Source: Gammaproteobacteria bacterium (GTDB lineage Bacteria > Pseudomonadota > Gammaproteobacteria > UBA4575). Taken from it: a stretch of DNA of 64,000 nucleotides. Made by a program: the position numbers and the translations under genes. The stretch covers positions 214,454 through 278,453 of the forward strand of contig CBDCUI010000009.1 in NCBI GenBank assembly GCA_965222615.1. Direction: 5' to 3'. The notes beneath the pieces were generated by a model. The model was given only the letters and a program-made list of their open reading frames with translations. It searched no databases and was not told where the DNA came from. Of the stretch, positions 30,167 through 57,434 are shown piece by piece (within the stretch, counting starts at the first letter, position 1; each line of letters begins with the position of its first letter).

Positions 30167-33100
30167 ATGAGAACGAAGGATTTCGTATCTCATTTGCTAC
30201 TATTAATAAGTATCTATGCATTAGCCGTATCTAGTGCAAATTCCAGTGACTCAGCTGAAGTAGCAAATTGGCAAACTACATTCAATAGCGTCAATTCATC
30301 GACATATGTTGAGGATAGGTTGTGGACACCTGAAATATATTCACGTCTGGCAACCGCTGATACTCATAGCAATAACAATTCTCGAAGTAGTCAAAGCAAA
30401 TATCACAAGAAAAGAAAAAAACGTAAGCAAGCAGATCTGTCTTTACGCAAGAGTGTAAACAATCCACGTCCGGATGTTGGAGAGTTTGTTACCTTTACGA
30501 TTACTGTAAAAAACGATGGCCCGGCAGGCACTGATTACGCAGTGGCTGATGTAATTCCAAGAGGCTATACCCACATCACTAATATCAGTAAAGGTGGTCA
30601 TCTGGAAGGTAATGTAATTACTTGGAAACATAATTGGATCGATGCAGGTGTAAAGCAAACTTTTAGTTTTCGTGCATTGGTTAAAGAGAAAACTGGAGCA
30701 AAAGACGAATATAAAAATGTTGCGCAAATCATAAAAAGCAATCGGCCTGATCCCGACAGCAAACCAAATAATGATGATGGCGATCAAAGTGAAGATGATG
30801 AGGACTTCGCAATTGTTGAACCTCAATCCAATGTGGCAGATTTTTCATTACATAAAAATGTTGATAACAGAACACCGAATATAGGAGATGTAGTAACTTT
30901 TACGATTAGCGTTAAAAACTATGGCCCAGCAGGAGGAGATTATGATGTACAAGATTTGCTTCCTCCTGGGTTTAGTAAAATCTCGTACATCAACAGGGGA
31001 GGTATTCTAAAAGGCAATAAAATTACCTGGAAAGGGCAGTGGATAGGCAAAGGTGAAACACAGGTATTTAAATTTCGTGCAACCGTAAATTCTCCCAAAT
31101 GTGTAGCTGATGAATATAAAAATATTGCACAAATCATAAAAAGTAACCGACCCGATCCCGACAGTACGCCGAACAACGACGATGGTGATCAAAGTGAAGA
31201 TGATGAAGACAGTGTTGTTGTTATTCCAAACACCGATATCTGCGATACGAATAATGCGGATTTATCGTTACAAAAGACGGTTGATAATAAAACCCCAAAT
31301 ATTGGTGATGTAGTTACTTTTAAAATTAAAGTCAAAAATGATGGTCCGTCTGGTGCTGATTATCATCTTGAAGATGTAGTTCCCAGCGGTTTCAGCAATA
31401 TTACTGGTATTACGAGGAATGGTGCACTTGCTGGTAATACGATTACATGGAAAAGGCAATGGATAGACAAAGGTGAAATACAGGTATTTAAATTTCATAC
31501 AACCGTAAATTCACCAAAATGTGTAGCCAGTGAATATAAAAATGTTGCACAAATCATAAAAAGCAATCGACCTGATCCCGACAGTACGCCGAACAACGAC
31601 GATGGCGATCAAAGCGAAGATGATGAAGACAGTGCAGCTGTTATTCCAAATACTAATATCTGTGACATCGGTACTTCTGACTTATCACTAAACAAAACAG
31701 TTAACAATGCCACCCCGAATGTAGGTGACACCGTGACGTTTAGTATTGTGGTGAGCAATGCCGGCCCGGATGCTGCCACCAATGTAGGGGTGAGTGACAT
31801 TGTACCGGTGGGCTACAGCAACATCAGTAATGTCAGCAATGGCGGCAGTGTCAATGGCAACAATATTAGTTGGAATGTTGCCAGCATTGCTAGTGGAGCG
31901 AGTGTCGCATTGAGCTTTAGTGCAGAAGTGCTCGCACCCACCGGTGTGGCCGATGAATACAAGAACACGGCCCAAGTCAGTGCTAGTGATCAAAGTGATC
32001 CGGACAGTACGCCGAACAATGATGATGGCGATCAAAGTGAAGATGATGAAGACAGTGCCAGTGTAATCCCAGGCGGTAGTGCAGGCGTTGCCGATCTGAT
32101 GTTAACCAAGAGTGTCGACAATGCCACCCCGAATGTAGGCGAGGTGGTGACGTTTAGTATTGTGGTGAGCAATGCCGGACCCGATGCCGCCACCAATGTA
32201 GGGGTGAGTGACATTGTACCGGTGGGCTACAGCAACATCAGTAATGTCAGCAATGGCGGCAGTGTCAATGGCAACAATATTAGTTGGAGTGTTGCCAGCA
32301 TTGCTAGTGGAGCGAGTGTCGCATTGAGCTTTACCGCAGAAGTGCTCGCACCCACCGGTGTGGCCGATGAATACAAGAACACGGCCCAAGCCAGTGCTAG
32401 TGATCAAAGTGATCCGGACAGTACACCGAACAATGATGATGGCGATCAAAGTGAAGATGATGAAGACAGTGCCAGTGTAATCCCAGGCGGTAGTGCAGGC
32501 GTTGCCGATCTGATGTTAACCAAGAGTGTCGACAATGCCACCCCGAATGTAGGCGAGGTGGTGACGTTTAGTATTGTGGTGAGCAATGCCGGACCGGATG
32601 CTGCCACCAATGTAGGGGTGAGTGACATTGTACCGGTGGGCTACAGCAACATCAGTAATGTCAGCAATGGCGGCAGTGTCAATGGCAACAATATTAGTTG
32701 GAGTGTTGCCAGCATTGCTAGTGGAGCCAGTGTCGCGTTGAGCTTTAGTGCAGAAGTACTCGCCCCAACGGGTGTAGCCGATGAATACAAGAACACCGCC
32801 CAAGTTAGCGCCAGTGATCAAAGTGATCCGGATAGTACGCCGAACAATGATGATGGCGATCAAAGTGAAGATGATGAAGACAGTGCCAGTGTAATCCCAG
32901 GCGGTAGTGCAGGCGTTGCCGATCTGATGTTAACCAAGAGTGTCGACAATGCCACCCCGAATGTAGGCGAGGTGGTGACGTTTAGTATTGTGGTGAGCAA
33001 TGCCGGACCGGATGCTGCCACCAATGTAGGGGTGAGTGACATTGTACCGGTGGGCTACAGCAACATCAGTAATGTCAGCAATGGCGGCAGTGTCAATGGC

Positions 33101-36100
33101 AACAATATTAGTTGGAATGTTGCCAGCATTGCTAGTGGAGCGAGTGTCGCATTGAGCTTTACCGCAGAAGTGCTCGCACCCACCGGTGTGGCCGATGAAT
33201 ACAAGAACACGGCCCAAGTTAGTGCTAGTGATCAAAGTGATCCGGACAGTACACCGAACAATGATGATGGCGATCAAAGCGAAGATGATGAAGACAGTGC
33301 ACTGGTGGTTCCACAAATCGATCCAACCGGTCGTTTTTATTGTGAAGATACCGGAGAGATCTTAACCGGTGGTTCGGTTGCATTTAGCTCATCAAACGGT
33401 GGTTCTACAACTGATTTCTTAGATGGTACTACAGGTGAATATCGTTCTGACTTTATCGCGCCTGCGGCGGGTACGATGTTTACCATGGCGATTACACCGC
33501 CACCAGGAACCATTTTAAGTGTGACTAGACCTGTAAACCCAACTCCCATTGCGCCCGCAGGAGCAGTTCCGGTAAATCTGGGTAGTACTGAACAGGGTAA
33601 TACTGGATTCTTAGTTGATTTCAGTGCAGCTGCAAATACACCTTGGTATGACACATTTACGATCGATCCGGGTGATCCCATTATTATCAATAACAATATA
33701 CCCGTAACGAATTGTGCAACCTCATCTATTTTGTTACGCAAAACTGCAGCTGAGCAAAGTGTAACAATTGGAAGTCTTGTTCAATATGAGATTAATGCAC
33801 GTGTGTTACTGCCATTACCGCTTACGGATATCGATATTGTCGATAACATTCCTGGCGGGTTCGTATATGTTGCAGACTCTGCAATTATTATTCGCGCCGG
33901 TGCGGATGGTGAGTTAAATACTATTGACGATGTAGTAACGAATGCCATAGTTACTGGAACCGATCCAATTACCTTTGAAGACATTGATTTTGCAGCTGGT
34001 GAAGAGCTAATTATTCGTTATTTCTTGCAAGTTACTTCGGGTGTGGTTGAAGGGCAATATGAAAATACTGCTCAATGCTTTAATCAAGGTAACTTAGCGG
34101 TTTGTAACCAAGCGGTTGCTTCAGTAGAAGTATCACAAGACCCGATTCTGGAGAAAACGACCATTATCGGCAAAGTTTGGGATGACATCGATCAAGATGG
34201 TTGGCAAGACAATGCCAATGCAAGCAATATCGTTGTGAAACATTTAAATGATGATAGTGAAGGAATAAATATTGAATCGATACCTGGACGTTCTGATCAG
34301 TTGGATCCTATTGAATTACACCAGGAAAATGTAACAGTCGCTATGTCAAATGATCATAACAATCCGGTTGTACTGACTTCGGCTGAAGGCACACGATTGG
34401 TTATCGATCAAACCGGTAAAGTCACTGCAGAACACACCGGCATGAAAGCCAAGGGCTTAACTGGGCAAGATTTGCAAGTGGCCAGCGTAATTGATAACGG
34501 CAAAATGCACCTTACTATTACAAACCATGGACTACATGAAGCCGGAATACCTGGTGTTCGTATTGCCAGCGTTGAGGGTTTATTAGTTGAAACGGATGAA
34601 TATGGTCGCTATCACTTAGCCGATATCGATGGTGGCCGTTGGGAACGCGGACGCAATTTTATACTTAAAGTAGATCCTCTAACTCTACCTGAAGGCGCTG
34701 AATTTACTACAGAAAATCCCCGTGTCTTACGTATAACACAAGGATTGATGAGTAAAATCAACTTTGGCGTGAAATTACCCAAGCAGGATGCCGTATATAA
34801 ACTGGAAATGCAGGAGCAACATAAGGCCTCTAGACACGAAATCGTCAAAACGCGTGAACTCGATGGAATTGTAGACCCAATTCATTTTGCGTCGGGTAAA
34901 GCCGATATCACGGATACATATATAGCTAAATTAGAGCGTGCCATTAGTAGTCTTTCCGACAAGGACAATGTGCGTATACACGTAGTTGGCCATACCGATA
35001 CACAATTGTTAACCCCGGCAACTGCTGCGAAGTTTAAAGATAACTACGGGCTCTCCATAGCAAGGGCAGAAGAAGTGGCCGCCAAATTGCGTTCTGAGCT
35101 GGGACTTAAAGTAACTTCGGTAGAAATTTCAGGCCGAGGCCCAGATGAACCTGTTGCCAGTAATGACAACCCAGAAGGCATGGCTAAAAACCGCAGAGTA
35201 GAGACGAGTTTACTTTTTGATGAAAGAATATCGAAAAAAATGGTGGCGACCAGCTATGAAAAAATCGCCGCGGGGCGTAGTGATGTATTACTACCTAAAG
35301 GTGGACGAGTTTGGGTGGTGGAAGATCCCACCAAGATTGATCTAAGACTGGACGTTATTTTCCATAGTGCGGTTGCAGTTGATAAAGGTGGGAAAGTCTC
35401 TGCTGTAAGCTTTAATAACTACAGCAATTACTTGGCTTACATTGATCGCTGGGAAGTAACGATTTATAACGACTCCGATGTTGATTTAATTTATCCAATT
35501 GCAAAGGTCTCAGGTGAGCGCAGCAATTTCTTGGCAATTCATGAACTGCAACTAGATGCCAGCACAAAACTAGACGATTCACTGTGGTACGTTTTGCGCG
35601 TACACGATTCCAAAGGACGCATGGATGAAACCGTGCCCAAACATCTTGCAGTCGTAGATGCGGAGCTTGCAGGAATGGAGCCAATATCAGAAGAGCAGCA
35701 AAGAGAGTTAAGTAGAAGCATTGTTGGTAAAAACAGCCTGAGTAATCAAAGAATCCCCATACATGGGTCTCGTGTGCGCTTAAATGGCAGTGGTATTGAT
35801 GCTGGTTATATATTGAGAATTAACGATCTCAGCATTCCAATTTCAGAAAAAGGCACATTTGCGACAGAACAACACTTACCAATCGGTACGCATAGCTTTG
35901 AGGTGAATGTAAGTGATGGCATTGACGATACAACCAGCAGAAATTTGAACGTAGATGTAAAAGGTAAGCATTTCTTCATGGTTGGTTTGGCTAATTTAAC
36001 GGTTGGTGAAAATAGTTTATCGGGAAGTGTTGAACCTCTGGGCGAAGACGATCACTTTGATGAAGATGTATGGATAGATGGCCGAGTTGCGTTCTATTTG

Positions 36101-38689
36101 AAAGGCAAAGTGAAAGGCAAGTATTTAATTACTGCACAACTGGATACTACTGAAGATGAATTGCGTAATTTGGGGGATCGTTTAGATGATGAGGATCCAC
36201 GTAGATTGTTCCGCAAGCTGGATCCTGATAAGTACTATGCCGTATATGGTGACGACTCCACTACGATAGATGATACCGATAGCCAGGGAATGTTTTATCT
36301 GCGCGTCGATTGGGATAAAAGTATGGCATTGTGGGGCAATTACAATACCGATATCACCGGTACCGAGTTTTCGCAATACAACCGCAGCTTATATGGTGCC
36401 AAGCTTGAACACCGAAATGTCGACACCACTGAATTTGGTGATCACAAACATGAAGTGCATGCATTTGCATCTCAAGCACAAAACGTTGCCGCGCACAATG
36501 AATTTGTTGCCACAGGTGGCTCCCTTTATTACTTGCGCGATACCGATATTGTTCAGGGTTCTGAAAAAGTTTGGGTGGAAGTTCGTAATCGTGATACCGA
36601 ACAAGTTACAGAAAACATCGCGTTAAAACACGGCCAAGATTACGACATCGATTATTTGCAAGGACGTATTATTTTAACGCGACCGCTTTCCCAGGTAGAT
36701 ATCGGTAATGGTCCAAACATTATTAAAGACCAACCTTTAGAAGGTGATGATGTATTCCTATTAGTGGATTACGAATACAACCCAGAATCATTTGATGCAG
36801 ACGACGTAACTGCCGGACTACGTGGCAAAGCCTGGTTAAATCAATACATTGGTATTGGTGGTACCTATATCAATGAAGAACGCAATGGCGAAGACTATGA
36901 GTTAAAAGGTGCTGATGTAACTCTGAAGGCAGGCAAGGGCACTTACATCAAACTTGAATATGCAGAAAGTGATGCCAACCAAACTAACCAAAACTTTATT
37001 TCAAATAATGGTGGAATTAACTTTAACAACAAGACCAATACACTAGACGAAAACAGTGATGGTGAAGCCTTAGGGATAGAAGCACGAGTTAATTTTGCAG
37101 AGATGACAGGCAATAAGCAGCAAGGTTATCTCATGGCGTGGTGGAAAGATCGTGATGCAAACTTTTCATCTACCGCGCGTCTCGATGATGGTATTGAAAC
37201 TACAGATACTGGTTTAGAAGGGGTGTGGCAGGCCACCGATAACTTGAAGTTAAGTACAAGAATTACCAATTTAGACAAACGCGGTGAAGGTGAGTTTACT
37301 GCTGCAAGCATACAAGGTGATTACAGCCTGACCGATCGTTTAACCCTGGGCGCAGAAATTCGTTACGAAGACGAAGAAGATGATACGGGTCTATTTGAAG
37401 ATACCGAAGCAACATTGGGTGGCCTCGCGTTGCGCTATAAGTTAACACCAGACACCGAAGTCTATGGCAGTGCACAAGCTGTGATTGCGGACGATAACGA
37501 TTATGAAAATAATGCCGGTGTAACCATTGGTGCCAGTCGTCAACTTAATACAAGATTGGCATTAAAAGGCGAAGTTACGACAGGTGATCGTGGTGAAGCG
37601 ATTGTACTTGGCGGTGAATATGCAGTAACACCGAATACCAATATTAGTATTAATGCTGGGTTTGGTGAAGGTGCAGCAAGTCAGATCGGTACGAATTATG
37701 TCACTGCAAATGGAATGGAGCTTTATGGCAGTTATGCAGTGGATCCTGATCGCACCGATAGTGGTTCCAATATGTTCACGTTTGGTACCAAACGCAGATT
37801 CCAGAACGGTTTAACAATATTTACTGAGAGTCAATTTGGCGAAGGTGACGAAGAACAAAGTATCGGCCGTACCTACGGCTTGGATTATGATCTGACTGAA
37901 CAATGGCGACTTAGTGCATCAATACAAAGTAATGATTTAGATCGTGATTTAGGTGATATTGATAGACGTGCAGCTACCGTAGGCGCTAAGTTTAGAAATA
38001 AAACGGTTCAGTTTGGTAGTGTGCTTGAATATCGTGAAGATGATGATCGCTCAACCGACTTGGATAACACTCAATGGCTTACCAGTAACACCATTGAATG
38101 GCAGAAAAGTGAAAACTTGAGGTTGCTGGGTAAACTAGATTTGTCTACGACTCATAGCGATAGCAATAAAGGCGATGAAGCAAAATATGCCGAGATCGAT
38201 CTTGGTTTTGCTTATCGACCTGCAACATATGATCGCTGGAATATTTTAGGCAAATATACCTTCTTGTATGACTTAGGTAGCAGTGGCCAGGATGATGTGA
38301 CACCAGAAGAGCGTGCGCACATCTTCTCGCTAGAAGGCATTTATGACCTTAATCAAAAATGGGAGCTTGGCGCTAAGTATGCACATCGCGAAGGCGATCT
38401 GCGTTTAACACGTGGATCCGGCCCATGGTTTGAATCGGGCGCACATTTAGCTGTAATTCGATCTCGATACCACTTCATTAAGAAATGGGATGCCTTGTTT
38501 GAATACCGTTGGTTGGAAAGTGAAAGCGAAGATGATGAAAAACATGGCGCTTTAGTCGCGGCATACAGGCACCTAGGCAAACACTTTAAAGTCGGTGCTG
38601 GGTATAACTTTACTGACTTTAATGACGACCTTACGGACAACGATTATGATAGCGATGGTTGGTTTATAGATATAGTAGGTAAGTACTAA
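30167..38689 (+). CDS. Giant repetitive cell-surface protein (2840 aa): signal peptide, 7 DUF11-like 138-aa repeats, internal OmpA-like peptidoglycan-binding domain, C-terminal beta-barrel-like region
   Basis: Signal peptide MRTKDFVSHLLLLISIYALAVSSA. Seven tandem units (LxKxVxNxxPxxG(D/E)xVTFxIxVxNxGP...NNDDGDQSEDDED). A GKVWDDIDQDGWQD SdrD/CnaB-like motif sits near aa 1300. OmpA-like segment HVVGHTDTQ...GLSIARAEEVAAKL...NRRVE at about nt 34850-35200. The last ~1000 aa are Gly/Tyr/Asp-rich and end ...WFIDIVGKY with an aromatic terminus. Confidence 0.8.
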   Translation: MRTKDFVSHLLLLISIYALAVSSANSSDSAEVANWQTTFNSVNSSTYVEDRLWTPEIYSRLATADTHSNNNSRSSQSKYHKKRKKRKQADLSLRKSVNNPRPDVGEFVTFTITVKNDGPAGTDYAVADVIPRGYTHITNISKGGHLEGNVITWKHNWIDAGVKQTFSFRALVKEKTGAKDEYKNVAQIIKSNRPDPDSKPNNDDGDQSEDDEDFAIVEPQSNVADFSLHKNVDNRTPNIGDVVTFTISVKNYGPAGGDYDVQDLLPPGFSKISYINRGGILKGNKITWKGQWIGKGETQVFKFRATVNSPKCVADEYKNIAQIIKSNRPDPDSTPNNDDGDQSEDDEDSVVVIPNTDICDTNNADLSLQKTVDNKTPNIGDVVTFKIKVKNDGPSGADYHLEDVVPSGFSNITGITRNGALAGNTITWKRQWIDKGEIQVFKFHTTVNSPKCVASEYKNVAQIIKSNRPDPDSTPNNDDGDQSEDDEDSAAVIPNTNICDIGTSDLSLNKTVNNATPNVGDTVTFSIVVSNAGPDAATNVGVSDIVPVGYSNISNVSNGGSVNGNNISWNVASIASGASVALSFSAEVLAPTGVADEYKNTAQVSASDQSDPDSTPNNDDGDQSEDDEDSASVIPGGSAGVADLMLTKSVDNATPNVGEVVTFSIVVSNAGPDAATNVGVSDIVPVGYSNISNVSNGGSVNGNNISWSVASIASGASVALSFTAEVLAPTGVADEYKNTAQASASDQSDPDSTPNNDDGDQSEDDEDSASVIPGGSAGVADLMLTKSVDNATPNVGEVVTFSIVVSNAGPDAATNVGVSDIVPVGYSNISNVSNGGSVNGNNISWSVASIASGASVALSFSAEVLAPTGVADEYKNTAQVSASDQSDPDSTPNNDDGDQSEDDEDSASVIPGGSAGVADLMLTKSVDNATPNVGEVVTFSIVVSNAGPDAATNVGVSDIVPVGYSNISNVSNGGSVNGNNISWNVASIASGASVALSFTAEVLAPTGVADEYKNTAQVSASDQSDPDSTPNNDDGDQSEDDEDSALVVPQIDPTGRFYCEDTGEILTGGSVAFSSSNGGSTTDFLDGTTGEYRSDFIAPAAGTMFTMAITPPPGTILSVTRPVNPTPIAPAGAVPVNLGSTEQGNTGFLVDFSAAANTPWYDTFTIDPGDPIIINNNIPVTNCATSSILLRKTAAEQSVTIGSLVQYEINARVLLPLPLTDIDIVDNIPGGFVYVADSAIIIRAGADGELNTIDDVVTNAIVTGTDPITFEDIDFAAGEELIIRYFLQVTSGVVEGQYENTAQCFNQGNLAVCNQAVASVEVSQDPILEKTTIIGKVWDDIDQDGWQDNANASNIVVKHLNDDSEGINIESIPGRSDQLDPIELHQENVTVAMSNDHNNPVVLTSAEGTRLVIDQTGKVTAEHTGMKAKGLTGQDLQVASVIDNGKMHLTITNHGLHEAGIPGVRIASVEGLLVETDEYGRYHLADIDGGRWERGRNFILKVDPLTLPEGAEFTTENPRVLRITQGLMSKINFGVKLPKQDAVYKLEMQEQHKASRHEIVKTRELDGIVDPIHFASGKADITDTYIAKLERAISSLSDKDNVRIHVVGHTDTQLLTPATAAKFKDNYGLSIARAEEVAAKLRSELGLKVTSVEISGRGPDEPVASNDNPEGMAKNRRVETSLLFDERISKKMVATSYEKIAAGRSDVLLPKGGRVWVVEDPTKIDLRLDVIFHSAVAVDKGGKVSAVSFNNYSNYLAYIDRWEVTIYNDSDVDLIYPIAKVSGERSNFLAIHELQLDASTKLDDSLWYVLRVHDSKGRMDETVPKHLAVVDAELAGMEPISEEQQRELSRSIVGKNSLSNQRIPIHGSRVRLNGSGIDAGYILRINDLSIPISEKGTFATEQHLPIGTHSFEVNVSDGIDDTTSRNLNVDVKGKHFFMVGLANLTVGENSLSGSVEPLGEDDHFDEDVWIDGRVAFYLKGKVKGKYLITAQLDTTEDELRNLGDRLDDEDPRRLFRKLDPDKYYAVYGDDSTTIDDTDSQGMFYLRVDWDKSMALWGNYNTDITGTEFSQYNRSLYGAKLEHRNVDTTEFGDHKHEVHAFASQAQNVAAHNEFVATGGSLYYLRDTDIVQGSEKVWVEVRNRDTEQVTENIALKHGQDYDIDYLQGRIILTRPLSQVDIGNGPNIIKDQPLEGDDVFLLVDYEYNPESFDADDVTAGLRGKAWLNQYIGIGGTYINEERNGEDYELKGADVTLKAGKGTYIKLEYAESDANQTNQNFISNNGGINFNNKTNTLDENSDGEALGIEARVNFAEMTGNKQQGYLMAWWKDRDANFSSTARLDDGIETTDTGLEGVWQATDNLKLSTRITNLDKRGEGEFTAASIQGDYSLTDRLTLGAEIRYEDEEDDTGLFEDTEATLGGLALRYKLTPDTEVYGSAQAVIADDNDYENNAGVTIGASRQLNTRLALKGEVTTGDRGEAIVLGGEYAVTPNTNISINAGFGEGAASQIGTNYVTANGMELYGSYAVDPDRTDSGSNMFTFGTKRRFQNGLTIFTESQFGEGDEEQSIGRTYGLDYDLTEQWRLSASIQSNDLDRDLGDIDRRAATVGAKFRNKTVQFGSVLEYREDDDRSTDLDNTQWLTSNTIEWQKSENLRLLGKLDLSTTHSDSNKGDEAKYAEIDLGFAYRPATYDRWNILGKYTFLYDLGSSGQDDVTPEERAHIFSLEGIYDLNQKWELGAKYAHREGDLRLTRGSGPWFESGAHLAVIRSRYHFIKKWDALFEYRWLESESEDDEKHGALVAAYRHLGKHFKVGAGYNFTDFNDDLTDNDYDSDGWFIDIVGKY
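30434..33331 (+). repeat. Seven tandem 414-bp (138-codon) coding repeats; the last four (31676-33331) are near-identical at nucleotide level
   Basis: The period is visible as GCCGATCTGATGTTAACCAAG at 32090, 32504 and 32918 (414 bp apart) and as identical reverse-strand shadow ORFs at 32032, 32446 and 32860. The first three units are diverged. Confidence 0.85.
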
Positions 38690-38707: not shown

Positions 38708-39136
38708 ATGGCTGAAAACAGAATTCTAAAGAGCCAAGAAGTCCTGTCACAGGCGGCAAACTATGCGCCAATTATTGAAACCTTTGGGATGAAGCTTTCA
38801 TATAATGAGGATAATGAAGCAGTATGGACATTACCTTTTACTAAAAGCCTAACCAATGGCGTTACCATCCATGGAGGCGCTATCGCCACGCTTTTAGATT
38901 GTGCTGGTTGGTTTACGCTATCGCAGTATTACGAAAACTGGATAGCAACCGTTGACTTCAATACCAATTTAATAACCTATGCCAAAGATGAGACCCTTGT
39001 TGCTACCGGGCATGTCGTCAAGATTGGAAAAAGAATATCCAACTCAACAATGGAAGTTGTCTCAGAAAAAGACGGCAGAATCATTGCAACAGGTACCGGA
39101 ACATACGCATTGACTTCAGTGCCATTTCCTATCTAG
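38708..39136 (+). CDS. PaaI/YbgC-type hotdog-fold thioesterase
   Basis: 142 aa. HGGAIATLLDCAGW motif typical of the PaaI-family 4HBT fold. Confidence 0.65.
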   Translation: MAENRILKSQEVLSQAANYAPIIETFGMKLSYNEDNEAVWTLPFTKSLTNGVTIHGGAIATLLDCAGWFTLSQYYENWIATVDFNTNLITYAKDETLVATGHVVKIGKRISNSTMEVVSEKDGRIIATGTGTYALTSVPFPI

Positions 39137-39250: not shown

Positions 39251-40640
39251 CCGCTAACGACCCAATGTATGGACACCTCCAAGCTAAGCAATTAGTTTGT
39301 GTGGTGTTAGAAACACAAAAGAAGGAGTCCATACATGAAACATCTAAACATAGTTGGCGTTGATTTAGCAAAAAACGTAATCCAAGTTTGCGTGATGCGC
39401 GCGCAGCGACAAGAAGTAATCAATCGTTCCTATAGTCGTACTAAATTTGCAGTATTTCTCGTTAAACAACAGCGCAGTGTCATCGCCTTTGAAGCATGTG
39501 CCAGTAGTCATTATTGGGCACGAAAAGCCAAAGCATTGGGGCATACCATCAAAATCATTCCGGCAAAAGCGATCACACCGTATCGTCAAGGCCATAAAAC
39601 CGATATCAATGATGCCCGCGCGATCGCTGAAGCGGCGAGCCGTCCCCACCTACTTGAAGCCCCATTAAAGAGTGTTGAACAACAAGGCTTGCAAGCCGTA
39701 CAACGTTCAAGAGAGCTTTTGGTACAAGAGCGAACCGGTCTATCCAACCACATCCGTGGCATATTGATGGAATTTGGCATCGTCATTCCTAAAGGCTTTG
39801 CCGCCTTGCATCAACAGATACCCGAGGTACTAGAAGATGGGGAGAACGAGCTACCCGATCTATATCGCCCGACGTTACAGATATTGTACGAACGCTTAGT
39901 GCAACTCAAAACAACCATCACGATACTTGATCAACAAATTGCCGCCCTCATCAAACAACATCCAGGTTGCGAAACGCTCATGAAGATAGAAGGTGTGGGC
40001 CCAATCAGTGCGATATTACTGTATGCCAGCCTTGGTAGTGGCGATGCGTTTAGCCAAGGTAGACAATATGCGGCGTACTTAGGGTTAACGCCCAAGCAAT
40101 ACAGCAGTGGCGGGAAAACGAATCTTATTGGGATAAGTAAAAAGGTTGCGAATAAACGTTTGCGCTCCGTACTCATTCAAGGAGCACGTGCTTATGTGCA
40201 CAAGCTCAAAGAACCGAAAAGCCAAAAAGATCGCTGGCTGCTGGCACTGATTGAACGTGCCGGCTATGGCAAGGCGGCGGTAGCGTTAGCCAACAAAAAT
40301 GTGCGCACCGCATGGGCCATGCTGACCCGGGGGACAACGTACAATAAACAACATACAACCACGATGCACATTGCATAAAAACAAAACCAAGACACTACGT
40401 TACATAAAAGTGTAGAAGAGGTTAGGCAAGTAGACCTAGGTAAAGAATAAAGAGATTCGCTTCGATGAAACCTGCTCCGCTTTGAGGATAAATAGAATCC
40501 ATCGACCCAATGAGGCATCGAAGTGCGCATACATACAGGGCTAGAAGATCGCAACTTCACGAAAAAGCCGAATATACATCTGCGTCTTTTTCTTTATCAA
40601 TTTCTGTTTGCTAAACTGGCGGTGTCCATATACAAAGCGG
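39251..40640 (+). mobile_element. IS110-family insertion sequence (element 1)
   Basis: Interrupts the backbone segment right after ...CCGCTAACGA. Subterminal inverted motifs GTATGGACACC (39256) and GGTGTCCATATAC (40621). Transposase at 39335-40378 plus a 260-bp noncoding 3' end. A 90-bp remnant of this 3' end recurs at 43791-43880. Confidence 0.6.
39335..40378 (+). CDS. IS110-family transposase
   Basis: 347 aa. N-terminal DEDD-type domain MKHLNIVGVDLAKNVIQVCV; C-terminal GVGPISAILLYASLG...AAYLGLTPKQYSSGGK motif characteristic of IS110/IS1111 transposases. Confidence 0.85.
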   Translation: MKHLNIVGVDLAKNVIQVCVMRAQRQEVINRSYSRTKFAVFLVKQQRSVIAFEACASSHYWARKAKALGHTIKIIPAKAITPYRQGHKTDINDARAIAEAASRPHLLEAPLKSVEQQGLQAVQRSRELLVQERTGLSNHIRGILMEFGIVIPKGFAALHQQIPEVLEDGENELPDLYRPTLQILYERLVQLKTTITILDQQIAALIKQHPGCETLMKIEGVGPISAILLYASLGSGDAFSQGRQYAAYLGLTPKQYSSGGKTNLIGISKKVANKRLRSVLIQGARAYVHKLKEPKSQKDRWLLALIERAGYGKAAVALANKNVRTAWAMLTRGTTYNKQHTTTMHIA

Positions 40641-40855: not shown

Positions 40856-42289
40856 CCGTATATGGCCTCCCTCCGTTTGCAAGCAAAATATTCAATGACA
40901 AAGTAGAGTCGACTGCACACGTATATTCGGCCTCTATTGATAGCAAGCGCTATTGATAGCAAGCGTTGATGCTGGGCCAGGATGGTGTATTCGCACCTAA
41001 GCACCCAATCGCTATTACGTACTCGAAGTACCTGGACATTCACGGGTTACGCTTAGGTCGGTTCGACCGGTTTGCCATCTAATAAATTACTTTGCAATCG
41101 TGGTAGATAATCCTCTTAAGTGTAAGTACATGTAATTTCGTTAATTGTTTTATTTCACATAAGCGCAAAGTTCGGATCATATTCACTTTCATCTCGCAAC
41201 ATTGCAAATGCCATACGCACGGTTTTATTCGCCAGTGCGACAGCGGCCACATTCGTATGTTTGGTTTTAGAAAGATGCGTGACCCACTGACTCAATCGAT
41301 CCTCTTTATGTTTCGCTTGCGAGACGACAGCCCTTGCTCCGTGAATGAGTAAGGTGCGCAGATAGGCATCGCCGCGTTTACTGATTTCCAGTAAACGCTC
41401 TTTATTGCCTGAACTGTGTTGTCTGGGGGTTAAGCCTAAGGCTGCCGCCATCTGGCGACTGCTCTTGTATTGTTTGGCATCGCCTACCGTGGCAATCAAT
41501 GCTGTGGCCACCATCGGCCCGACCCCTCGTAGCTGTTGTAGACGCTTGGTGACTTCGTTTTGTTTGGCCTGTTGTTCAATCGTTTGATCAAGTTCTTTTA
41601 CACGCGCATCTAATGTTAGTACGTCATGTTGAAGTCCCTGTAGTAAAGAACGAAAGTGTGGCGTTAAGCCATTCTCTCCGTCTTCTAACCAAGTCGGTAT
41701 TGCAGCGCGTAATCGATGTAACTGTTGGGGTGCGACTAAGCCATATTCACTCACTAAGCCTCGAATCTGATTGGCTTTAGCGGTGCGTTGTTGCACCAAA
41801 GTATTACGCACACGATGCAGGGCCTGAATGTCTTGCTGTTCAATACTTTTGATCGTGACAAAGCGCATGTTGGGGCGACTCATGGCTTCGCAAATGGCTT
41901 CGGCATCGTTGGCATCATTCTTGTTGCTCTTTACATAAGGCTTTACAAACTGGGGTGCAATCAATTTCACCACATAGCCTCGTTGTTGTAATACACGAGC
42001 CCAGTGGTGTGCACCCGAACAGGCCTCCATGCCAATCTCACCACCCGGTTCAACATGCTCCACTAATACCTTAAGCCACTTGCTTCGAGATAAGCGTCGT
42101 TTGAATACGCACTTTCCCGTGCGATCCACCCCGTGTAGTTGAAAAACATGCTTTGCCAAATCCACACCCATGCGTGTAATCTTGTTCATGTATGGTCTCC
42201 TTTATTCAAAGTAACTGGTTCTATCGCTTCCAGTATGGGCACATTACGATGCCGTTTAAAGTTGAGGGAGGCCATACCATTGCTATTGG
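40856..42289 (-). mobile_element. IS110-family insertion sequence, copy A (identical to copy B apart from a 16-bp internal tandem duplication)
   Basis: 1434 bp identical to 44249-45666 except for an extra TATTGATAGCAAGCGC near 40930. Flanks diverge outside these coordinates. About 300 bp of noncoding sequence lies 3' of the transposase. Confidence 0.8.
41155..42189 (-). CDS. IS110-family transposase (copy A)
   Basis: 344 aa. MNKITRMGVDLAKHVFQLHGVD N-terminus; LRGVGPMVATALIATVGD...AAALGLTPRQHSSGNK C-terminal motif. Confidence 0.85.
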   Translation of the reverse strand: MNKITRMGVDLAKHVFQLHGVDRTGKCVFKRRLSRSKWLKVLVEHVEPGGEIGMEACSGAHHWARVLQQRGYVVKLIAPQFVKPYVKSNKNDANDAEAICEAMSRPNMRFVTIKSIEQQDIQALHRVRNTLVQQRTAKANQIRGLVSEYGLVAPQQLHRLRAAIPTWLEDGENGLTPHFRSLLQGLQHDVLTLDARVKELDQTIEQQAKQNEVTKRLQQLRGVGPMVATALIATVGDAKQYKSSRQMAAALGLTPRQHSSGNKERLLEISKRGDAYLRTLLIHGARAVVSQAKHKEDRLSQWVTHLSKTKHTNVAAVALANKTVRMAFAMLRDESEYDPNFALM

Positions 42290-52198: not shown

Positions 52199-53785
52199 TT
52201 AGAATGAACCATGCACGTGCATAGATCTTTCGACTATTTCATCCCTGCCTTTTTGTTTTACATCGCTCAAATTAACTAGTATTGGTAGGAATGTTAAGTG
52301 TTCGTATACGATCTTATTATTAGTGATGTCAATAAAAGATAGCGTTTTTGCAAAATTGAGTTTATTTAGATCGCGCTCCAAGTTATCTGAATGCACCCAT
52401 ATTTGTTCACTCAAAGAAACTAACCATACAAATTGTAAATAAAGTTCTGCAAGGTATTGCCACAACCATTCTTTGGTAAACCGATAGACAAAGGGTCGAT
52501 TATTAAAATGCATGCATTTACTATCTTCAGACCATAATAATTTTCCTGGACCGTTTTCTGACCAATCCATCCATACCGATGAATCCAAATAATGTGATGC
52601 GTAGTCCTCTACATTAATTATTTGCCCTTGCGGAAATACACATTTTTGCCAAAGCGAATATGCAGTACACCATAATGACGTAGCTTTAGATAATTTGACA
52701 CTACAAAACTTATTACAGTGAAACATAGTCCCTGACTTACGACTTGAATAATCAATATGCACTTTCAATTCCTGATCAAACGACTTTATGAAGGATGTTA
52801 TAAATTGAGTGAGGTGGTTATAAGTCCGTAATTTGGGGAATCTTTCTATCAAATTTTTACCGTTTAGGTATTCTTTAGTAAGAGTTCTATCACGTAGAAT
52901 CTCCTTGTAATTTTTTACGTCATACTTATCGAAACAACCCACATCACATGAAAGTGGATAAAATTCCCTAGTAGGGATATTTATTTTTGATTTCAAGTAC
53001 GTGGTTTTTGAAGTTCTAACATTTCCAACGTTAACTAAACAAGTCTTCACCCAATCCGGACCAGCTGAAAAATGATGTAAATAGGCTAAATTTGCATAGT
53101 CGACACAACCCTTCAGCCAAATCCGAACAGAATTGGAAGGGTTATTGAGTTCCTCGGCTTTGTTAATCCAATATCTATATTCTTCTATTATTTTCTTGCG
53201 TTCTAAAATATCTGTGCCGACTCTATATCTATCTATATCCCAAAAATTTGTTCCACACTTAATGTTAGGGCAACTATATATTTGTAAGAAAGCATTCGTA
53301 ACTTTATATTTATGTAAATAGCTCCCACATTTTATACAGATAGTAGTTAATGGAGCGTGATGAATTGGGCAGTGACTCCATGCGAGAATTTGATGGAAAA
53401 CAAGATGTGTGCCCCGCTGGACACATTGAGGACAAATGCGTAAATGTTTTGATAAATTTAATGGATTGTTAATAGAGATTGTTGATTTATAGGCACAGAT
53501 GTTTTTGATATTCGAGGAATAGTATTCTCCACACGATGCCTCTAACCAATCACTCTTCCAACCAGTCAGCTGCAGAATTCGTTTTACGTTAAAATTACGA
53601 ACGTCGTCTGGATAGGTGCTTATATCGCTAATGTAATCCGACGCATAACTTTTTCGAGTTCCAAAGTTTCTTTTAAAGTCTGACCAATCAAAATGATTTA
53701 ATATTGCTAGCTTCGCTGTAATAGACCACAGAGTCTCACCTATTGGATTCCATTCTTGAGCACCAATCAGGCTACGGCTATTCAT
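52199..53785 (-). CDS. tniQ: TniQ/TnsD-like target-selection protein
   Basis: 528 aa. N-terminal ETLWSITAKLAILNHFDW resembles the TniQ N-terminus; Cys/His-rich zinc-finger region CPQCVQRG...CPIHH...CIKCGS. Last gene of the tns operon. Confidence 0.6.
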   Translation of the reverse strand: MNSRSLIGAQEWNPIGETLWSITAKLAILNHFDWSDFKRNFGTRKSYASDYISDISTYPDDVRNFNVKRILQLTGWKSDWLEASCGEYYSSNIKNICAYKSTISINNPLNLSKHLRICPQCVQRGTHLVFHQILAWSHCPIHHAPLTTICIKCGSYLHKYKVTNAFLQIYSCPNIKCGTNFWDIDRYRVGTDILERKKIIEEYRYWINKAEELNNPSNSVRIWLKGCVDYANLAYLHHFSAGPDWVKTCLVNVGNVRTSKTTYLKSKINIPTREFYPLSCDVGCFDKYDVKNYKEILRDRTLTKEYLNGKNLIERFPKLRTYNHLTQFITSFIKSFDQELKVHIDYSSRKSGTMFHCNKFCSVKLSKATSLWCTAYSLWQKCVFPQGQIINVEDYASHYLDSSVWMDWSENGPGKLLWSEDSKCMHFNNRPFVYRFTKEWLWQYLAELYLQFVWLVSLSEQIWVHSDNLERDLNKLNFAKTLSFIDITNNKIVYEHLTFLPILVNLSDVKQKGRDEIVERSMHVHGSF

Positions 53786-53797
53786 TATTTGATAATG

Positions 53798-54787
53798 TTA
53801 ATGTGCTGTACGTACAACTAGATCTTTAATCTGTTCAATTGCTACATGGCTGATAGCATCTTCGATGAATCTCTTTTCCAATTGAAGTGACATATCATCT
53901 TGTTCTGGCAATGCTTTTAGTATCCAACGTAATAACGCTGAGATCGGTTGTAGAGGAATTTCATCAAATTTTGCAATATGTTCAGCTCTGCACATCTCCA
54001 TAAGAGAATCCCAAATTAATTCTGCCGAATCTAATAAACGCCAGCCTGCGTCATAAGCTTGTGGAGCAAAATACCTTGTATAGGAGCATCCCGACCCAGG
54101 AGGATATTCTGAATGTGAATCGAGCATTTTTATTATGCGTCTAAAATCTCTTTTGTCGGCAATGCCTTCAAATCGATGTGTCGCAGTCATGAATCGCCCA
54201 AGCAATTGTTGCTTTCCTGAACTTCTGAAATTGTTTTTTATATCTATTAATTCTGGTTGACCGACTAGCACTGTCACTAAACGCACGTCTTTCATTTTCA
54301 ATGAATTATGAAGATCCATAAGATATTCATATTGTGTTAAATCTAACCATTCTGCTTCATCAATAAATAAAAGATAACGATGTTCACGCGTTTGAAAGGC
54401 ACGCTCAACCATAAAATCAATACAACGTCTGCGCTTTATTCTTGCGGCTTTAGAATCAATTAATGAATAATTTAGTGCTTGCAGCATCTCATCAAAGAAG
54501 CGTAATTCAGTAGTACTACTTTGTGATGGTTGCCACATGCTCAACATCGTAGTTGGAATTGGGCTTCCTAAAACTTCTTCACAATTATCAACAATGTAAC
54601 GAATTGCTTGAGTCTTCCCTACCCTTTGATTTCCCCACACTAAACCGCCTGGTAAAAGTTTATCCAACCAAACTAGAATTGCATTTACGAATTCTTCTAA
54701 TGGACGCGTCGGAATAATTGCTGCATCACGCAATATTGGGTGATCGTCAATAAACTCTACTCTCTCGTTATTATGCTTTCTTTCCAT
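53798..54787 (-). CDS. tnsC: TnsC/TniB-like AAA+ ATPase
   Basis: 329 aa. Walker A GNQRVGKTQ, Walker B LLFIDEAEWL; sits between tnsB and tniQ. Confidence 0.7.
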   Translation of the reverse strand: MERKHNNERVEFIDDHPILRDAAIIPTRPLEEFVNAILVWLDKLLPGGLVWGNQRVGKTQAIRYIVDNCEEVLGSPIPTTMLSMWQPSQSSTTELRFFDEMLQALNYSLIDSKAARIKRRRCIDFMVERAFQTREHRYLLFIDEAEWLDLTQYEYLMDLHNSLKMKDVRLVTVLVGQPELIDIKNNFRSSGKQQLLGRFMTATHRFEGIADKRDFRRIIKMLDSHSEYPPGSGCSYTRYFAPQAYDAGWRLLDSAELIWDSLMEMCRAEHIAKFDEIPLQPISALLRWILKALPEQDDMSLQLEKRFIEDAISHVAIEQIKDLVVRTAH

Positions 54788-54799
54788 TGTGTTTATATG

Positions 54800-56695
54800 C
54801 TATCGAGTTGTATGTACTTTATTTAATGAAACCCAGTTCTCGTGTTTCGTAGGTATATTCTGTTTTTCTTGTTTTAGTTTGTTGAATTCTGTTGAGGAGT
54901 GCTGCAAATGCAGAAGTCGGTTTCTATCTTTTCTATATTTATTGGCGCGTTTATTGAGAAAGTTCATGTAGTCTGATAACGGTGTGAGCGTGTCAGAATA
55001 TAAACGCTTTTGCTTTATAAGTTTTAAAATTGCACATCTTATTTTTAAGCTATGTGGATAGATCATCCAGCGTTCTTCTGCTTCAAGACGACCTATACAT
55101 TTGCCATTTTCTAAAAACAGTAACCCTGTGCGTATGTCTTTAATGTTTACGCGAAATGTTGCACGTTGATTTGTATATTGAGTATTAATTCTTAAGAAGT
55201 CACTGGAATATCTCACTCCTTTGAATTTTATATAGGGTCGGTGCTGATGCTCACGACTTGACCGTATCGTGACAAAATAATTTCTTTCAAATAAGGGAAT
55301 ATTATCCGGTTGTTGATTTGTTAGATATCGTGGTATATCCCCTGCTCGATCAATTCGATAACGGATGTATTCAAGTGGCGTGCGACCATTCAGACTGGTG
55401 TGAGGGCTCGCATTATAGTTTGCGATAGCGACATCTGTAACGAGTTCAAGGTTTTCATACTCGATTAAGAGTTTTTTTGCTTGCTGTGTTGCGTTTCTTC
55501 TTCTCGGATCTTGTGGATTTGAACCAGTTGTATTTGGCCATCTATGTAAAGATGCTTCTTCAAACGTCCTCATGAATCTTTCAATTATTGAATTAGATCG
55601 AGGTCGTCGAGCTTTATTGCTGATGATCTCTATTGCACCCGTTGAGATAATTCTGTTTTGTAGCCAACTAGAAATATTTGCATATGCATTGTCTAGTTGG
55701 ACAACATCAAATGATCTCCAAGCGCATTTATCAATAACACCAGATGGCAATCCCGCATTTCGCTTGTAATGAATAACGCCGTTGGTATTTTCTTTTGGTA
55801 ACCACGGTGTGAATGAACTTGCTATGCATTCTAGCAAGTCTTCCATAGTGTAATTTTCCGATAAGCTTAAGCTATAACCAAGAATCGCCCTGCTCGACAC
55901 ATCAATTAGTACGAGCAACCAAATTCTAGAAAGCGGTAGTTCTTGTTCTTCACCAAATTGGTCTTTGATGCGGATGATTAGTTCAGCATCAAGGCGATGT
56001 GCATCAAACTGCACCTTATTATATGGTTTTAGTATTGGGACAGCGTTATTTAAGCAGATATGATTTGTAGTGATCGATTGGATGTTATCGCCAAACTCAG
56101 CAATCGCTCCTTCAATAAAATTCTCTTTTTGAACTTTTCTGCAATAGTTACGAATTACCTCTCTACCACCGTCACGATTACTGAAGGGATAATCCAATTC
56201 GGTATCAATGCCTTTTGCTGTACAATTATCTTTAAAAGCTTCCCAAATGATTTTAGTATTTCTACCGCGCACATAGCACTCATCTATTTTTTTCTTTCCT
56301 AATGCCCATCCTTTAAGGCTATCTTCAAGATTTGGATATTGACGTAGAAATTGACTAAATAATCCAGCATGCCCAGTTAACTTGTTGGTTGTACGCTCAT
56401 ACTTTTTAAATCGAAAATTTGGGATACAAGCTGTATACCCCCACGGATCTCCATCTGGCGATACGTCAAAGGCACGTTTAAGAATTCGTATTAACTCTGA
56501 TTTAGATAATCCGCATTTATAAAGTATTTTTTCTATTGACAAATCGGATGATAAATATAGGTCAACAGCACGTTTTCTACGATTAAATTTCGCTTTTTTA
56601 GCAGCAGAAAATGAACTTACATCAACCGGAAGCCAGTTGTTTGGCTCTAAGTCTTTTGATAGATGATTATTTTCAAGACATAGTTTCCTGATCAT
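54800..56695 (-). CDS. tnsB: TnsB-like DDE transposase (Mu/rve integrase core)
   Basis: 631 aa. DDE motifs in WLLVLIDVSSRAILGY (D), VQLDNAYANIS (D) and IIERFMRTFEE (E); N-terminal HTH-like region. Confidence 0.75.
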   Translation of the reverse strand: MIRKLCLENNHLSKDLEPNNWLPVDVSSFSAAKKAKFNRRKRAVDLYLSSDLSIEKILYKCGLSKSELIRILKRAFDVSPDGDPWGYTACIPNFRFKKYERTTNKLTGHAGLFSQFLRQYPNLEDSLKGWALGKKKIDECYVRGRNTKIIWEAFKDNCTAKGIDTELDYPFSNRDGGREVIRNYCRKVQKENFIEGAIAEFGDNIQSITTNHICLNNAVPILKPYNKVQFDAHRLDAELIIRIKDQFGEEQELPLSRIWLLVLIDVSSRAILGYSLSLSENYTMEDLLECIASSFTPWLPKENTNGVIHYKRNAGLPSGVIDKCAWRSFDVVQLDNAYANISSWLQNRIISTGAIEIISNKARRPRSNSIIERFMRTFEEASLHRWPNTTGSNPQDPRRRNATQQAKKLLIEYENLELVTDVAIANYNASPHTSLNGRTPLEYIRYRIDRAGDIPRYLTNQQPDNIPLFERNYFVTIRSSREHQHRPYIKFKGVRYSSDFLRINTQYTNQRATFRVNIKDIRTGLLFLENGKCIGRLEAEERWMIYPHSLKIRCAILKLIKQKRLYSDTLTPLSDYMNFLNKRANKYRKDRNRLLHLQHSSTEFNKLKQEKQNIPTKHENWVSLNKVHTTR

Positions 56696-57434
56696 GAGAA
56701 CTGGATTTTATTATTGTTTTTATTGTTAATGGGTATGTGTCTAAATCAGATGAAAGTACCCCTTTGTGTAAATGTTTTGCTAAACAAGCAATAATATGCT
56801 GAGATTCAGACGCGCAGAGATTGATGATTTTCTCAAGGGTTATTTCTTTGTAGTTCTTACAAAGTTCCAAAACCTCTCTTTCAAGCAAAGGATCTGGGCT
56901 CTTATAGGCGTTTCTTGCATGTGAGAGCAGCTCACGCCAATTAAAAATTAGAATTTTGTCTTTCTCTAAATTTTTATTAGTTATAAATTCACATCTGTAG
57001 CCATTTTCACTTCCCCACCTCTCAATTAAGTTCCAATCTTTGGGTCTAGTTGTTCCAGAATTGTCCTTCCTAAGAGAGGCTTCATTGAGAACTTCATAGA
57101 ATACTTCTTGTTTTGACTTAAAGGTGAAACTTAAATCAAATGTGTAGTGAGGTTTGTTTCTTAGAGGCGCTTCTATCCGCAGTGGTCGCTCGCATAATTT
57201 TGTTATTGAAGGTTCCGCTTCTGCTTTTATGATTGCATCAGCAATTAGATCTCCGGCGACACAGACTTCTCTCATACCAGCCTTGATACTAAAAATGCGA
57301 TGATATCTGCAGTTAATTTGTTTTTTTAGAGGCAATAAATGCGGGCCTCTAAACATTTTAGCTTCTATAAAACGTGCTGAATTGAAGTTCTCAGTGGATA
57401 AGTTGTTCTTATTATTTGCAACTACATCAGTCAT
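56673..57434 (-). CDS. tnsA: TnsA-like endonuclease
   Basis: 253 aa. RYHRIFSIKAGMREVCVAGDLIADAIIKAEAEPSITKLCERPL parallels Tn7 TnsA YSHKTGRVHHLLSDLELAVFLSLEWESSVLDIREQFPL; TFDLSF matches TnsA TDFLVD. Overlaps the tnsB start by 23 bp. Confidence 0.55.
   Translation of the reverse strand: MTDVVANNKNNLSTENFNSARFIEAKMFRGPHLLPLKKQINCRYHRIFSIKAGMREVCVAGDLIADAIIKAEAEPSITKLCERPLRIEAPLRNKPHYTFDLSFTFKSKQEVFYEVLNEASLRKDNSGTTRPKDWNLIERWGSENGYRCEFITNKNLEKDKILIFNWRELLSHARNAYKSPDPLLEREVLELCKNYKEITLEKIINLCASESQHIIACLAKHLHKGVLSSDLDTYPLTIKTIIKSSSHDQETMS

Follow-up and report, generated by a model that had tools for sequence, protein, structure and literature searches.

A gammaproteobacterial protein that joins CLIPPER stalk repeats and an OmpA-like anchor to a predicted giant outer-membrane barrel

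A 64,000-nucleotide stretch of a Gammaproteobacteria bacterium genome (GenBank assembly GCA_965222615.1, contig CBDCUI010000009.1, positions 214,454 to 278,453; referred to here as the window) contains an open reading frame (ORF) on its forward strand, 30167..38689, that runs from an ATG start for 2840 residues plus a stop codon with its frame intact over 8.5 kb. This ORF typifies the fused members of a family, very large, uncharacterised and widespread, that combines an adhesin with a giant barrel. Its product is organized as a signal peptide, a stalk of CLIPPER (DUF11) repeats, a base module, an OmpA-like domain and a C-terminal module of about 1150 residues, of which the last 906 are predicted to form an outer-membrane beta-barrel; a look-up of the exact ORF sequence found no record. 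The reading that we favour, with somewhat better than even confidence, is that the protein is a surface fibril which consists of one chain and anchors itself, and that it represents the fused version of a system made up of a CLIPPER-adhesin-OmpA protein and a dedicated giant barrel. All of the elements listed in a first-pass annotation of this DNA are present at the places it gave them, and several of its interpretations are revised below.

The final 1150 residues, the C-terminal module, have no match to PDB sequences at E<=1, and comparison with Pfam and NCBIfam gave no family match, only a sub-threshold OMP_b-brl match and noise (YadA_anchor, NtrZ); a YadA or trimeric-autotransporter reading was rejected, the YadA_anchor match being noise. 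An AlphaFold2 model of residues 1691-2840, built from a 59-sequence alignment, has a mean predicted local distance difference test score (pLDDT) of 76.6 and a predicted template modelling score of 0.73, and is almost entirely beta. From residue 1935 to the end (35969..38686) it consists of a near-unbroken series of strands of 10-15 residues joined by turns of 2-8 residues, with about 40 (38-42) wall strands, a count that is an estimate made without inspection of the model coordinates. Foldseek matches to the model are almost solely outer-membrane barrels, plus two matches to ApoB100, with template modelling (TM) scores of no more than 0.19 when normalised by the query and 0.38 when normalised by the target; at such scores no solved structure has the global fold of the module. 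The largest solved single-chain barrel is SprA, with 36 strands (bioRxiv 10.64898/2026.03.07.710327), and three Deinococcus outer-membrane proteins have been predicted at 38 strands (PMC9388160); this last remark is the only related item that we found in the literature on this family or on barrels of 38-48 strands.

The barrel assignment was checked in three independent ways: by the presence of membrane-type strands, by covariation and by the C-terminal signal. When a candidate strand was required to hold a 9-residue stretch at least 60% hydrophobic on one face and mostly polar on the other, the alternating pattern was found in 36 of the 42 candidate wall strands across 295 non-redundant relatives. 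Amphipathicity is weak if Kyte-Doolittle values are averaged over whole strands, because Tyr and Trp score as polar on that scale. Covariation was computed from the 295 sequences (an effective number of about 199) after columns rich in gaps had been dropped, and gaps were not counted as a state. Strands that are adjacent in sequence are mutual best partners, and the pair 253-1145 (model numbering), which connects the first strand with the last, ranks 7th of 385,067 pairs; on this covariation evidence the barrel is closed, first strand to last. The last 900 or so residues are rich in Gly (9.8%) and Tyr (5.1%) and end in ...GKY, within a beta-signal-like strand (...GWFIDIVGKY, 38657..38686) whose last residue is aromatic. 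In all relatives the module is the end of the protein, with 0-1 residues following it, and 203 of 230 (88%) terminate in Y, F or W. The barrel-like character that the first-pass annotation read from the Gly/Tyr-rich composition and the aromatic end is thus borne out by the model, the strand pattern and the covariation, and the C-terminal part of the protein is predicted to be an outer-membrane barrel rather than a soluble or disordered region.

Two segments in the early part of the barrel stand out. Model strands 405-413 and 524-533 covary, and the residues lying between them (model residues 417-514, aa 2107-2204, 36485..36778) therefore constitute a small domain inserted between two wall strands; its secondary structure is beta, it is very conserved, with invariant residues (...TGGSLYYL...GSEKVWVEV...QGRIILTRPL...), and it is placed much like the plug of an usher. 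The second segment, DPxxxFRxLDPDxYYxVYGDDSTTxxDTDSQG (aa ~1994-2042, model residues 304-352, given as 37.0-37.4 kb of the window), is among the most conserved of the family and has many invariant residues, yet its pLDDT is only 31-44. It may be an interface that folds only on a partner.

A search with the module as a single-sequence query against 1.84 billion representatives returned 3389 clusters (50% identity) at E<=1e-3 and 1105 at E<=1e-30, and there are at least 589 matches in GTDB species genomes. The carriers include Thiotrichales, Lysobacteraceae, Kangiella, Granulosicoccaceae, Acinetobacter, Myxococcales, Desulfobulbaceae and Epsilonproteobacteria, with Thiotrichales being the closest among the matches listed (74-75% identity). 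The first-pass annotation considered the architecture unusual, but within the family it is not: 139 of 259 database proteins sampled are fused in the same manner, in many lineages and at lengths of up to 7402 residues, and the upstream part of these includes a recognisable OmpA domain in 102 and CLIPPER repeats in 111. Calx-beta, cadherin-like and Big_13 modules also occur in relatives.

A further 90 of the 259 proteins are stand-alone forms of about 1200 residues, and these reveal a two-gene version of the same system. At some 50 stand-alone loci the barrel gene has its own signal peptide, and at every locus with readable flanks it adjoins, on the same strand, a large gene of CLIPPER or other immunoglobulin (Ig)-type repeats that terminates in one or two OmpA domains. 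The linkage is kept in Lysobacter yangpyeongensis even though the gene order is inverted, and in Acinetobacter sp. ANC 4470 the two genes are 10 nucleotides apart, and the barrel protein (1236 residues) has 37% identity with the module of the window across the whole 1150 residues. No third conserved gene was found beside the pair, the other clusters of neighbours being antisense shadow ORFs or lineage-specific synteny. The split point may lie before or after the OmpA domain; at locus L018 it lies before, such that the OmpA domain travels with the barrel. In stand-alone proteins such as P0079, P0083 and P0119 the N-terminal 100 residues or so contain, after the signal peptide, what looks like a relic of the last strands of an OmpA domain (..FRVK..GE......NRRVDV). 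These sequences hint that a fused ancestor was split, within an OmpA domain or behind it, to give the two-gene form. Several stand-alone homologues (Kangiella spongicola, Lysobacter silvisoli) carry the source name 'TonB-dependent receptor'; this is probably a propagated misannotation, since the module matches neither a plug nor a barrel profile of that family.

Proteins of this kind have been described as fibrillar adhesins that carry adhesive domains at the N-terminus and an OmpA-like anchor at the C-terminus (bioRxiv 10.1101/2025.04.25.650565; PMC10952558), the anchor being mentioned merely in passing in the second of these, and CshA_NR2-like tips have been noted in relatives (bioRxiv 10.1101/2025.04.25.650565). 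The words 'barrel', 'outer membrane' and 'periplasm' are absent from the main text of the paper that describes the CLIPPER domain (bioRxiv 10.1101/2025.04.25.650565), and a partner barrel therefore goes unmentioned in it.

Directly ahead of the C-terminal module is the putative anchor. The OmpA-like domain occupies residues 1556-1691 (34832..35239), with a Pfam OmpA (PF00691) match at residues 1574-1676 of 47.1 bits against a cutoff of 27.2, which confirms the internal OmpA C-terminal-like domain of the first-pass annotation. It is of the MotB/TssL type, including the MotB/TssL-type loop, and its PDB sequence matches are PA0833-PD, TssL, MotB and AbOmpA. The GHTD and LSIARA motifs align with GHTD and LSLARA of 3TD3 (Acinetobacter baumannii OmpA), and both the Asp of GHTD and the Arg of LSxARA are kept, so that by alignment the peptidoglycan-binding pair is conserved. 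We take the aligned residues to be the diaminopimelate-binding Asp271 and Arg286 of A. baumannii OmpA, whose roles in that binding were reportedly described by Park et al. in 2012. Two tandem OmpA domains are present in many other relatives, which suggests that the number of peptidoglycan anchors varies.

The base module precedes the OmpA domain (aa 1330-1540, 34154..34786); it begins GKVWDDIDQDGW and has an SdrD-B/CnaB-like fold with a large insertion. An AlphaFold2 model of residues 1046-1700 has a pLDDT of 82.5 overall and above 90 for residues 1185-1545, and the structures most like it are pilins and adhesins of Gram-positive bacteria, 9IFR, SdrD and OmpA-like domains. The Pfam SdrD_B profile (PF17210) scores below threshold on the ORF (12.1 bits against a cutoff of 29.7), although it has precomputed matches in several homologues, and it is the model that makes the CnaB/SdrD-like assignment of the first-pass annotation right at the level of fold. 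The base module has near-invariant residues across the family and was found at 58 of 82 loci, without exception directly ahead of the OmpA domain. At four loci (L009, L055, L062 and L068) the OmpA domain is nested within the base module and divides it into two halves, an arrangement which suggests that the module lies on the periplasmic side. Between the base module and the CLIPPER repeats are a degenerate but still recognisable eighth CLIPPER-like domain (aa 1188-1310, 33728..34096), with Lys, Asp and Asn present at the triad motifs discussed below, and a region (aa 1046-1187, 33302..33727) in which the model has a small beta domain and, after it, a linker rich in Pro and Ala (about aa 1122-1155; pLDDT below 50 at model residues 77-110). 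On the other side of the anchor, the model of the C-terminal module has two beta-sandwich (Ig-like) domains ahead of the barrel (aa 1705-1931, 35279..35959), which are presumed to be periplasmic.

The stalk is made of CLIPPER repeats. Pfam DUF11/CLIPPER (PF01345) matches in seven stretches (E=5.8e-163, 533 bits against a cutoff of 24.6), in agreement with the DUF11-like tandem repeats originally proposed, and TIGR01451 matches in eight stretches of the ORF. Regular expressions place the seven units at residues 90, 225, 365, 505, 643, 781 and 919, with a spacing of 135-140 residues for units 1-3 and of exactly 138 for units 4-7. DUF11 has been renamed CLIPPER, and the 9IFR crystal structure has a CnaA-like Ig fold with an isopeptide triad named as K715, D748 and N806 (bioRxiv 10.1101/2025.04.25.650565 = Protein Sci 2025 e70342); the lock is an Asp-catalysed Lys-Asn isopeptide bond that gives heat and protease resistance (bioRxiv 10.1101/2025.04.25.650565). 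When a repeat is aligned to 9IFR the Lys, Asp and Asn fall on chain positions 10, 44 and 101, the Asp being counted as residue 749, one off the D748 of the paper. The motifs L.K, D..P.G[FY] and Y.N.AQ (Y-K-N-x-A-Q here) are found in all seven repeats, and by this comparison the Lys/Asp/Asn triad is kept in each of them; the bond itself would be expected to form. As the first-pass annotation noted, each unit is closed by an acidic segment (DPDS[TK]PNNDDGDQSEDDED, seven of seven by regular expression). These tails (DPDSTPNNDDGDQSEDDED) are candidate calcium-binding segments, and the motif is present in only 20 of 223 long relatives.

The seven repeats are of two kinds. Repeats 1-3 (aa 90-504, 30434..31678) have AT-rich codons, whereas repeats 4-7 (aa 505-1045, 31679..33301) form a 414-bp tandem DNA repeat of 3.9 copies that is 96% identical, with 93-98% mutual identity at the protein level. 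The GC content at third codon positions is 0.25-0.30 in repeats 1-3, 0.48-0.51 in repeats 4-7 and 0.30-0.40 in the rest of the gene, which suggests that repeats 4-7 came in as a cassette from a donor of higher GC content and were subsequently amplified in tandem. The count of these four near-identical copies is one that assembly could have affected.

At the N-terminus, residues 1-24 (MRTKDFVSHLLLLISIYALAVSSA; 30167..30238, immediately upstream of 30239) are a putative Sec signal peptide, with the n/h/c layout of the Sec type when read by eye from the sequence; the signal peptide of the first-pass annotation is therefore retained, and homologues P0002 (71% identical), P0009 and P0010 have an N-terminus of the same kind. 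The following tip region (aa 25-89, 30239..30433) is Ser/Asn-rich, has a polybasic end (KYHKKRKKRKQ) and gave no match in the Pfam/NCBIfam family scan.

The course of assembly that we propose for a self-anchoring fibril is as follows. The protein would be exported by Sec through its N-terminal signal peptide, and its C-terminal 906 residues would be inserted, presumably by BAM (the machinery that assembles beta-barrels), as a barrel of about 40 strands, the fold, closure and beta-signal of which are computed. The OmpA-like domain, the SdrD-B-like base module and the two Ig-like domains would remain in the periplasm, where the OmpA domain could hold peptidoglycan non-covalently via its conserved Asp and Arg. 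With these parts sitting under the outer membrane, there is no need for the adhesin to span the periplasm, as the first-pass annotation had it. The N-terminal stalk of seven or eight CLIPPER domains would pass to the cell surface through the wide barrel lumen, and a Lys-Asn bond could then lock each domain at the surface, which would make the passage irreversible and yield a fibre resistant to proteolysis and force. The pore may be plugged, or sealed around the stalk, by the inserted beta domain and by the conserved loop of low pLDDT in the barrel's first third. The likely function would be attachment of a sulfur-oxidising, Thiotrichales-like gammaproteobacterium to surfaces or to other cells.

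Domain identities, key residues, the barrel nature and closure of the module and the genetic coupling are established computationally; for the passage of the stalk through the barrel, its surface exposure, the plugging and the adhesive function we rely on inference, and this is the first of several points that weigh against the scheme. The strand count of 38-42 is an estimate made without inspecting the model coordinates, as is the state of the lumen. A folded Ig domain needs a barrel of only about 24 strands, as in ushers, which leaves the huge size unexplained. The family scan recognised no adhesive tip in this protein, which has just the 65-residue Ser/Asn-rich, polybasic N-terminus, and no energy source for export is evident. 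A broader proposal, to which we give rather less than even odds, is that the module of about 1150 residues is the outer-membrane part of an undescribed display and secretion pathway with type-V- or usher-like logic. In such a pathway the barrel, formed by one chain with about 40 strands and bigger than all those solved, would thread a Sec-exported and possibly prefolded isopeptide-locked Ig fibre that is held by the base module and OmpA, would be encoded in one or two genes, and would be represented by more than 3000 clusters in Gamma-, Beta-, Alpha-, Delta- and Epsilonproteobacteria.

Other explanations can be set against the self-anchoring fibril. The protein might instead be an envelope tether, in which the outer membrane is stapled, by way of the barrel, to peptidoglycan by the OmpA domain as in OmpA, OmpM and SlpA, with the CLIPPER repeats serving as a periplasmic spacer or scaffold and the barrel as an anchor or large porin. 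The very likely periplasmic location of the base module and OmpA domain would suit this, as would the lack of a recognisable adhesive tip domain, but we regard it as unlikely. By our own estimate a stalk with 7 to more than 20 Ig domains would measure roughly 30-100 nm, more than the periplasm is wide; domains locked by isopeptide bonds are typical of surface fibres; and the Calx-beta, cadherin-like, Big_13 and CshA_NR2-like modules of relatives (for CshA_NR2, bioRxiv 10.1101/2025.04.25.650565) are those of extracellular adhesins. Moreover, the repeat protein of the split systems is not attached to the barrel, and a tether would therefore need neither the conserved linkage nor so wide a barrel. 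More doubtful still is a general translocon or uptake channel for folded proteins or large solutes, comparable to SprA of the T9SS (type IX secretion system) or to a TonB-dependent receptor, for which the adhesin-OmpA part would be a positioning accessory. The source annotation of some homologues as TonB-dependent receptors speaks for such a channel, whereas there is no Pfam or NCBIfam match to any family of transporters or to the plug or barrel of TonB-dependent receptors, no further conserved neighbour that might be a substrate or motor, and the sole invariant partner is the CLIPPER...OmpA protein, to which the barrel has repeatedly been fused.

We consider it very improbable that the gene is an artefact or is decaying, either as an assembly chimera within the repeats or as a relic beside mobile elements. 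Four near-identical 414-bp repeats of differing codon composition are admittedly the sort of sequence in which assemblers err, and a short way downstream come insertion sequence (IS) elements and a Tn7-like element. The reading frame is nonetheless unbroken over 8.5 kb, every functional motif is kept, a full-length homologue of 71% identity, with the same genes upstream of it, is collinear with this one, and the repeats are about 4% apart and so are not simple duplicated reads.

That homologue, of 2266 residues, is held by locus L001 of a related metagenome-assembled genome, with which the window is collinear at 22.2-38.7 kb; the shared upstream genes encode an ABC transporter, an M17 peptidase, Dus, DUF2064, GT2 and FadL proteins, and the window copy of the giant gene has more repeats. 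Collinearity resumes at 58.5 kb, leaving some 19.8 kb (38.7-58.5 kb) in between. This synteny indicates that the giant gene is native and that the mobile elements arrived later, and on these grounds we rejected the idea that the gene is part of the mobile-element complex; the adjacency reported in the first-pass annotation is real, but a meaningful link between the two is not upheld. The intervening DNA contains a small 4HBT thioesterase (38708-39136), three IS110-family transposases (39335-40378, 41155-42189 and 44532-45566, the last two with identical Pfam matches and scores), an IS30-type transposase (42427-43587) and a phage-integrase fragment (47603-48253). These are followed on the forward strand by adjacent genes for an AAA ATPase (334 residues) and an S8 subtilase (769 residues; 48375-51694 together), which could be a defence-type or cargo gene pair, and on the reverse strand by a Tn7-like tnsABC-tniQ module (52199-57434) encoding a possible TnsA of 253 residues, an rve-type TnsB-like protein of 631, an AAA_22 TnsC-like protein of 329 and a TniQ of 528. 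SoxY/SoxZ homologues, identified through the synteny to L001, and a sulfite exporter of TauE/SafE (62418-63220 and 60075-61148) point to a sulfur-oxidising host, which fits with uncultured Thiotrichales as the closest relatives. Rfam and tRNA scans of the window found nothing.

Taken together, the family has the look of a not yet described form of barrel-mediated adhesin display in which the barrel is exceptionally large. Recent surveys list OmpA-anchored fibrillar adhesins of Gram-negative bacteria, and how the stalk of a protein with its C-terminus bound to peptidoglycan crosses the outer membrane is not addressed in those papers; both the fusion described here and the invariant linkage of the genes elsewhere suggest that what is missing is a dedicated giant barrel. 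The question is directly testable in culturable strains of Acinetobacter, Lysobacter or Pseudoxanthomonas. If the proposal is correct, it would provide a new minimal route of surface display, the largest known single-chain beta-barrel, with the question that this poses for BAM-mediated folding, and a function for thousands of proteins labelled "OmpA family protein", "hypothetical" or, wrongly, "TonB-dependent receptor".

The closest known system is that of the CLIPPER-OmpA adhesins, exemplified by Acinetobacter silvestris B9T28_05395 (9IFR; Protein Sci 2025 e70342), which has the same stalk domain with its Lys/Asp/Asn triad and likewise has a conserved base module followed by an OmpA-like domain; an Acinetobacter relative has a barrel gene immediately downstream. 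The protein described here differs in its covalent fusion to a barrel module of about 1150 residues and in having no recognisable adhesive tip. In SlpA of Deinococcus and OmpM of the Negativicutes, too, a single chain carries both a domain that binds the cell wall and a very large barrel, and SlpA, with 30 strands, gave the highest query-normalised TM score among the Foldseek matches (0.19). These proteins, however, are trimers that rely on an SLH domain and a coiled coil and lack an external stalk, whereas here the domain is of the OmpA_C type and a long repeat stalk lies N-terminal to it.

Among export systems, the ushers PapC and FimD have an outer-membrane barrel that passes folded Ig-like fibre subunits, much as we envisage for the stalk, and their plug, like the small beta domain here, is inserted between early wall strands. 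There is no relation to them by sequence or by Pfam (PF00577), the strands number about 40 rather than 24, no chaperone gene is nearby, and the fibre is one polypeptide of tandem domains with an OmpA anchor, not a series of polymerised subunits. With type V systems (Va, Vb and Ve, the last including intimin and invasin) the family shares a Sec-dependent passenger and a barrel in one chain or two linked genes and, presumably, display of the passenger through or beside its own barrel, and with intimin a periplasmic peptidoglycan-binding domain (LysM in intimin, OmpA here). The barrel is three times larger than those of 12 (Va, Ve) or 16 (Vb) strands, though, and matches neither the Pfam autotransporter (PF03797) nor an Omp85 profile; the order passenger-OmpA-barrel corresponds to neither Va nor Ve, being reversed with respect to Ve with no LysM or IAT_beta match, and the passenger is an isopeptide Ig chain, not a beta-helix. 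SprA/Sov of the T9SS (36 strands) shows no sequence or family match and a TM score of no more than 0.16; it belongs to Bacteroidota, not Proteobacteria, and here there is no C-terminal domain secretion signal, no PorV-like or other conserved T9SS partner, and the cargo is OmpA-tethered. Likeness to TonB-dependent receptors is confined to the barrel wall in structural matches, with no Pfam or NCBIfam match to their plug (PF07715) or barrel (PF00593) at E<=1-10, and the MtrAB porin-cytochrome complex, an electron-transfer system of unrelated function with 26 strands, has no sequence relation to the giant barrel.

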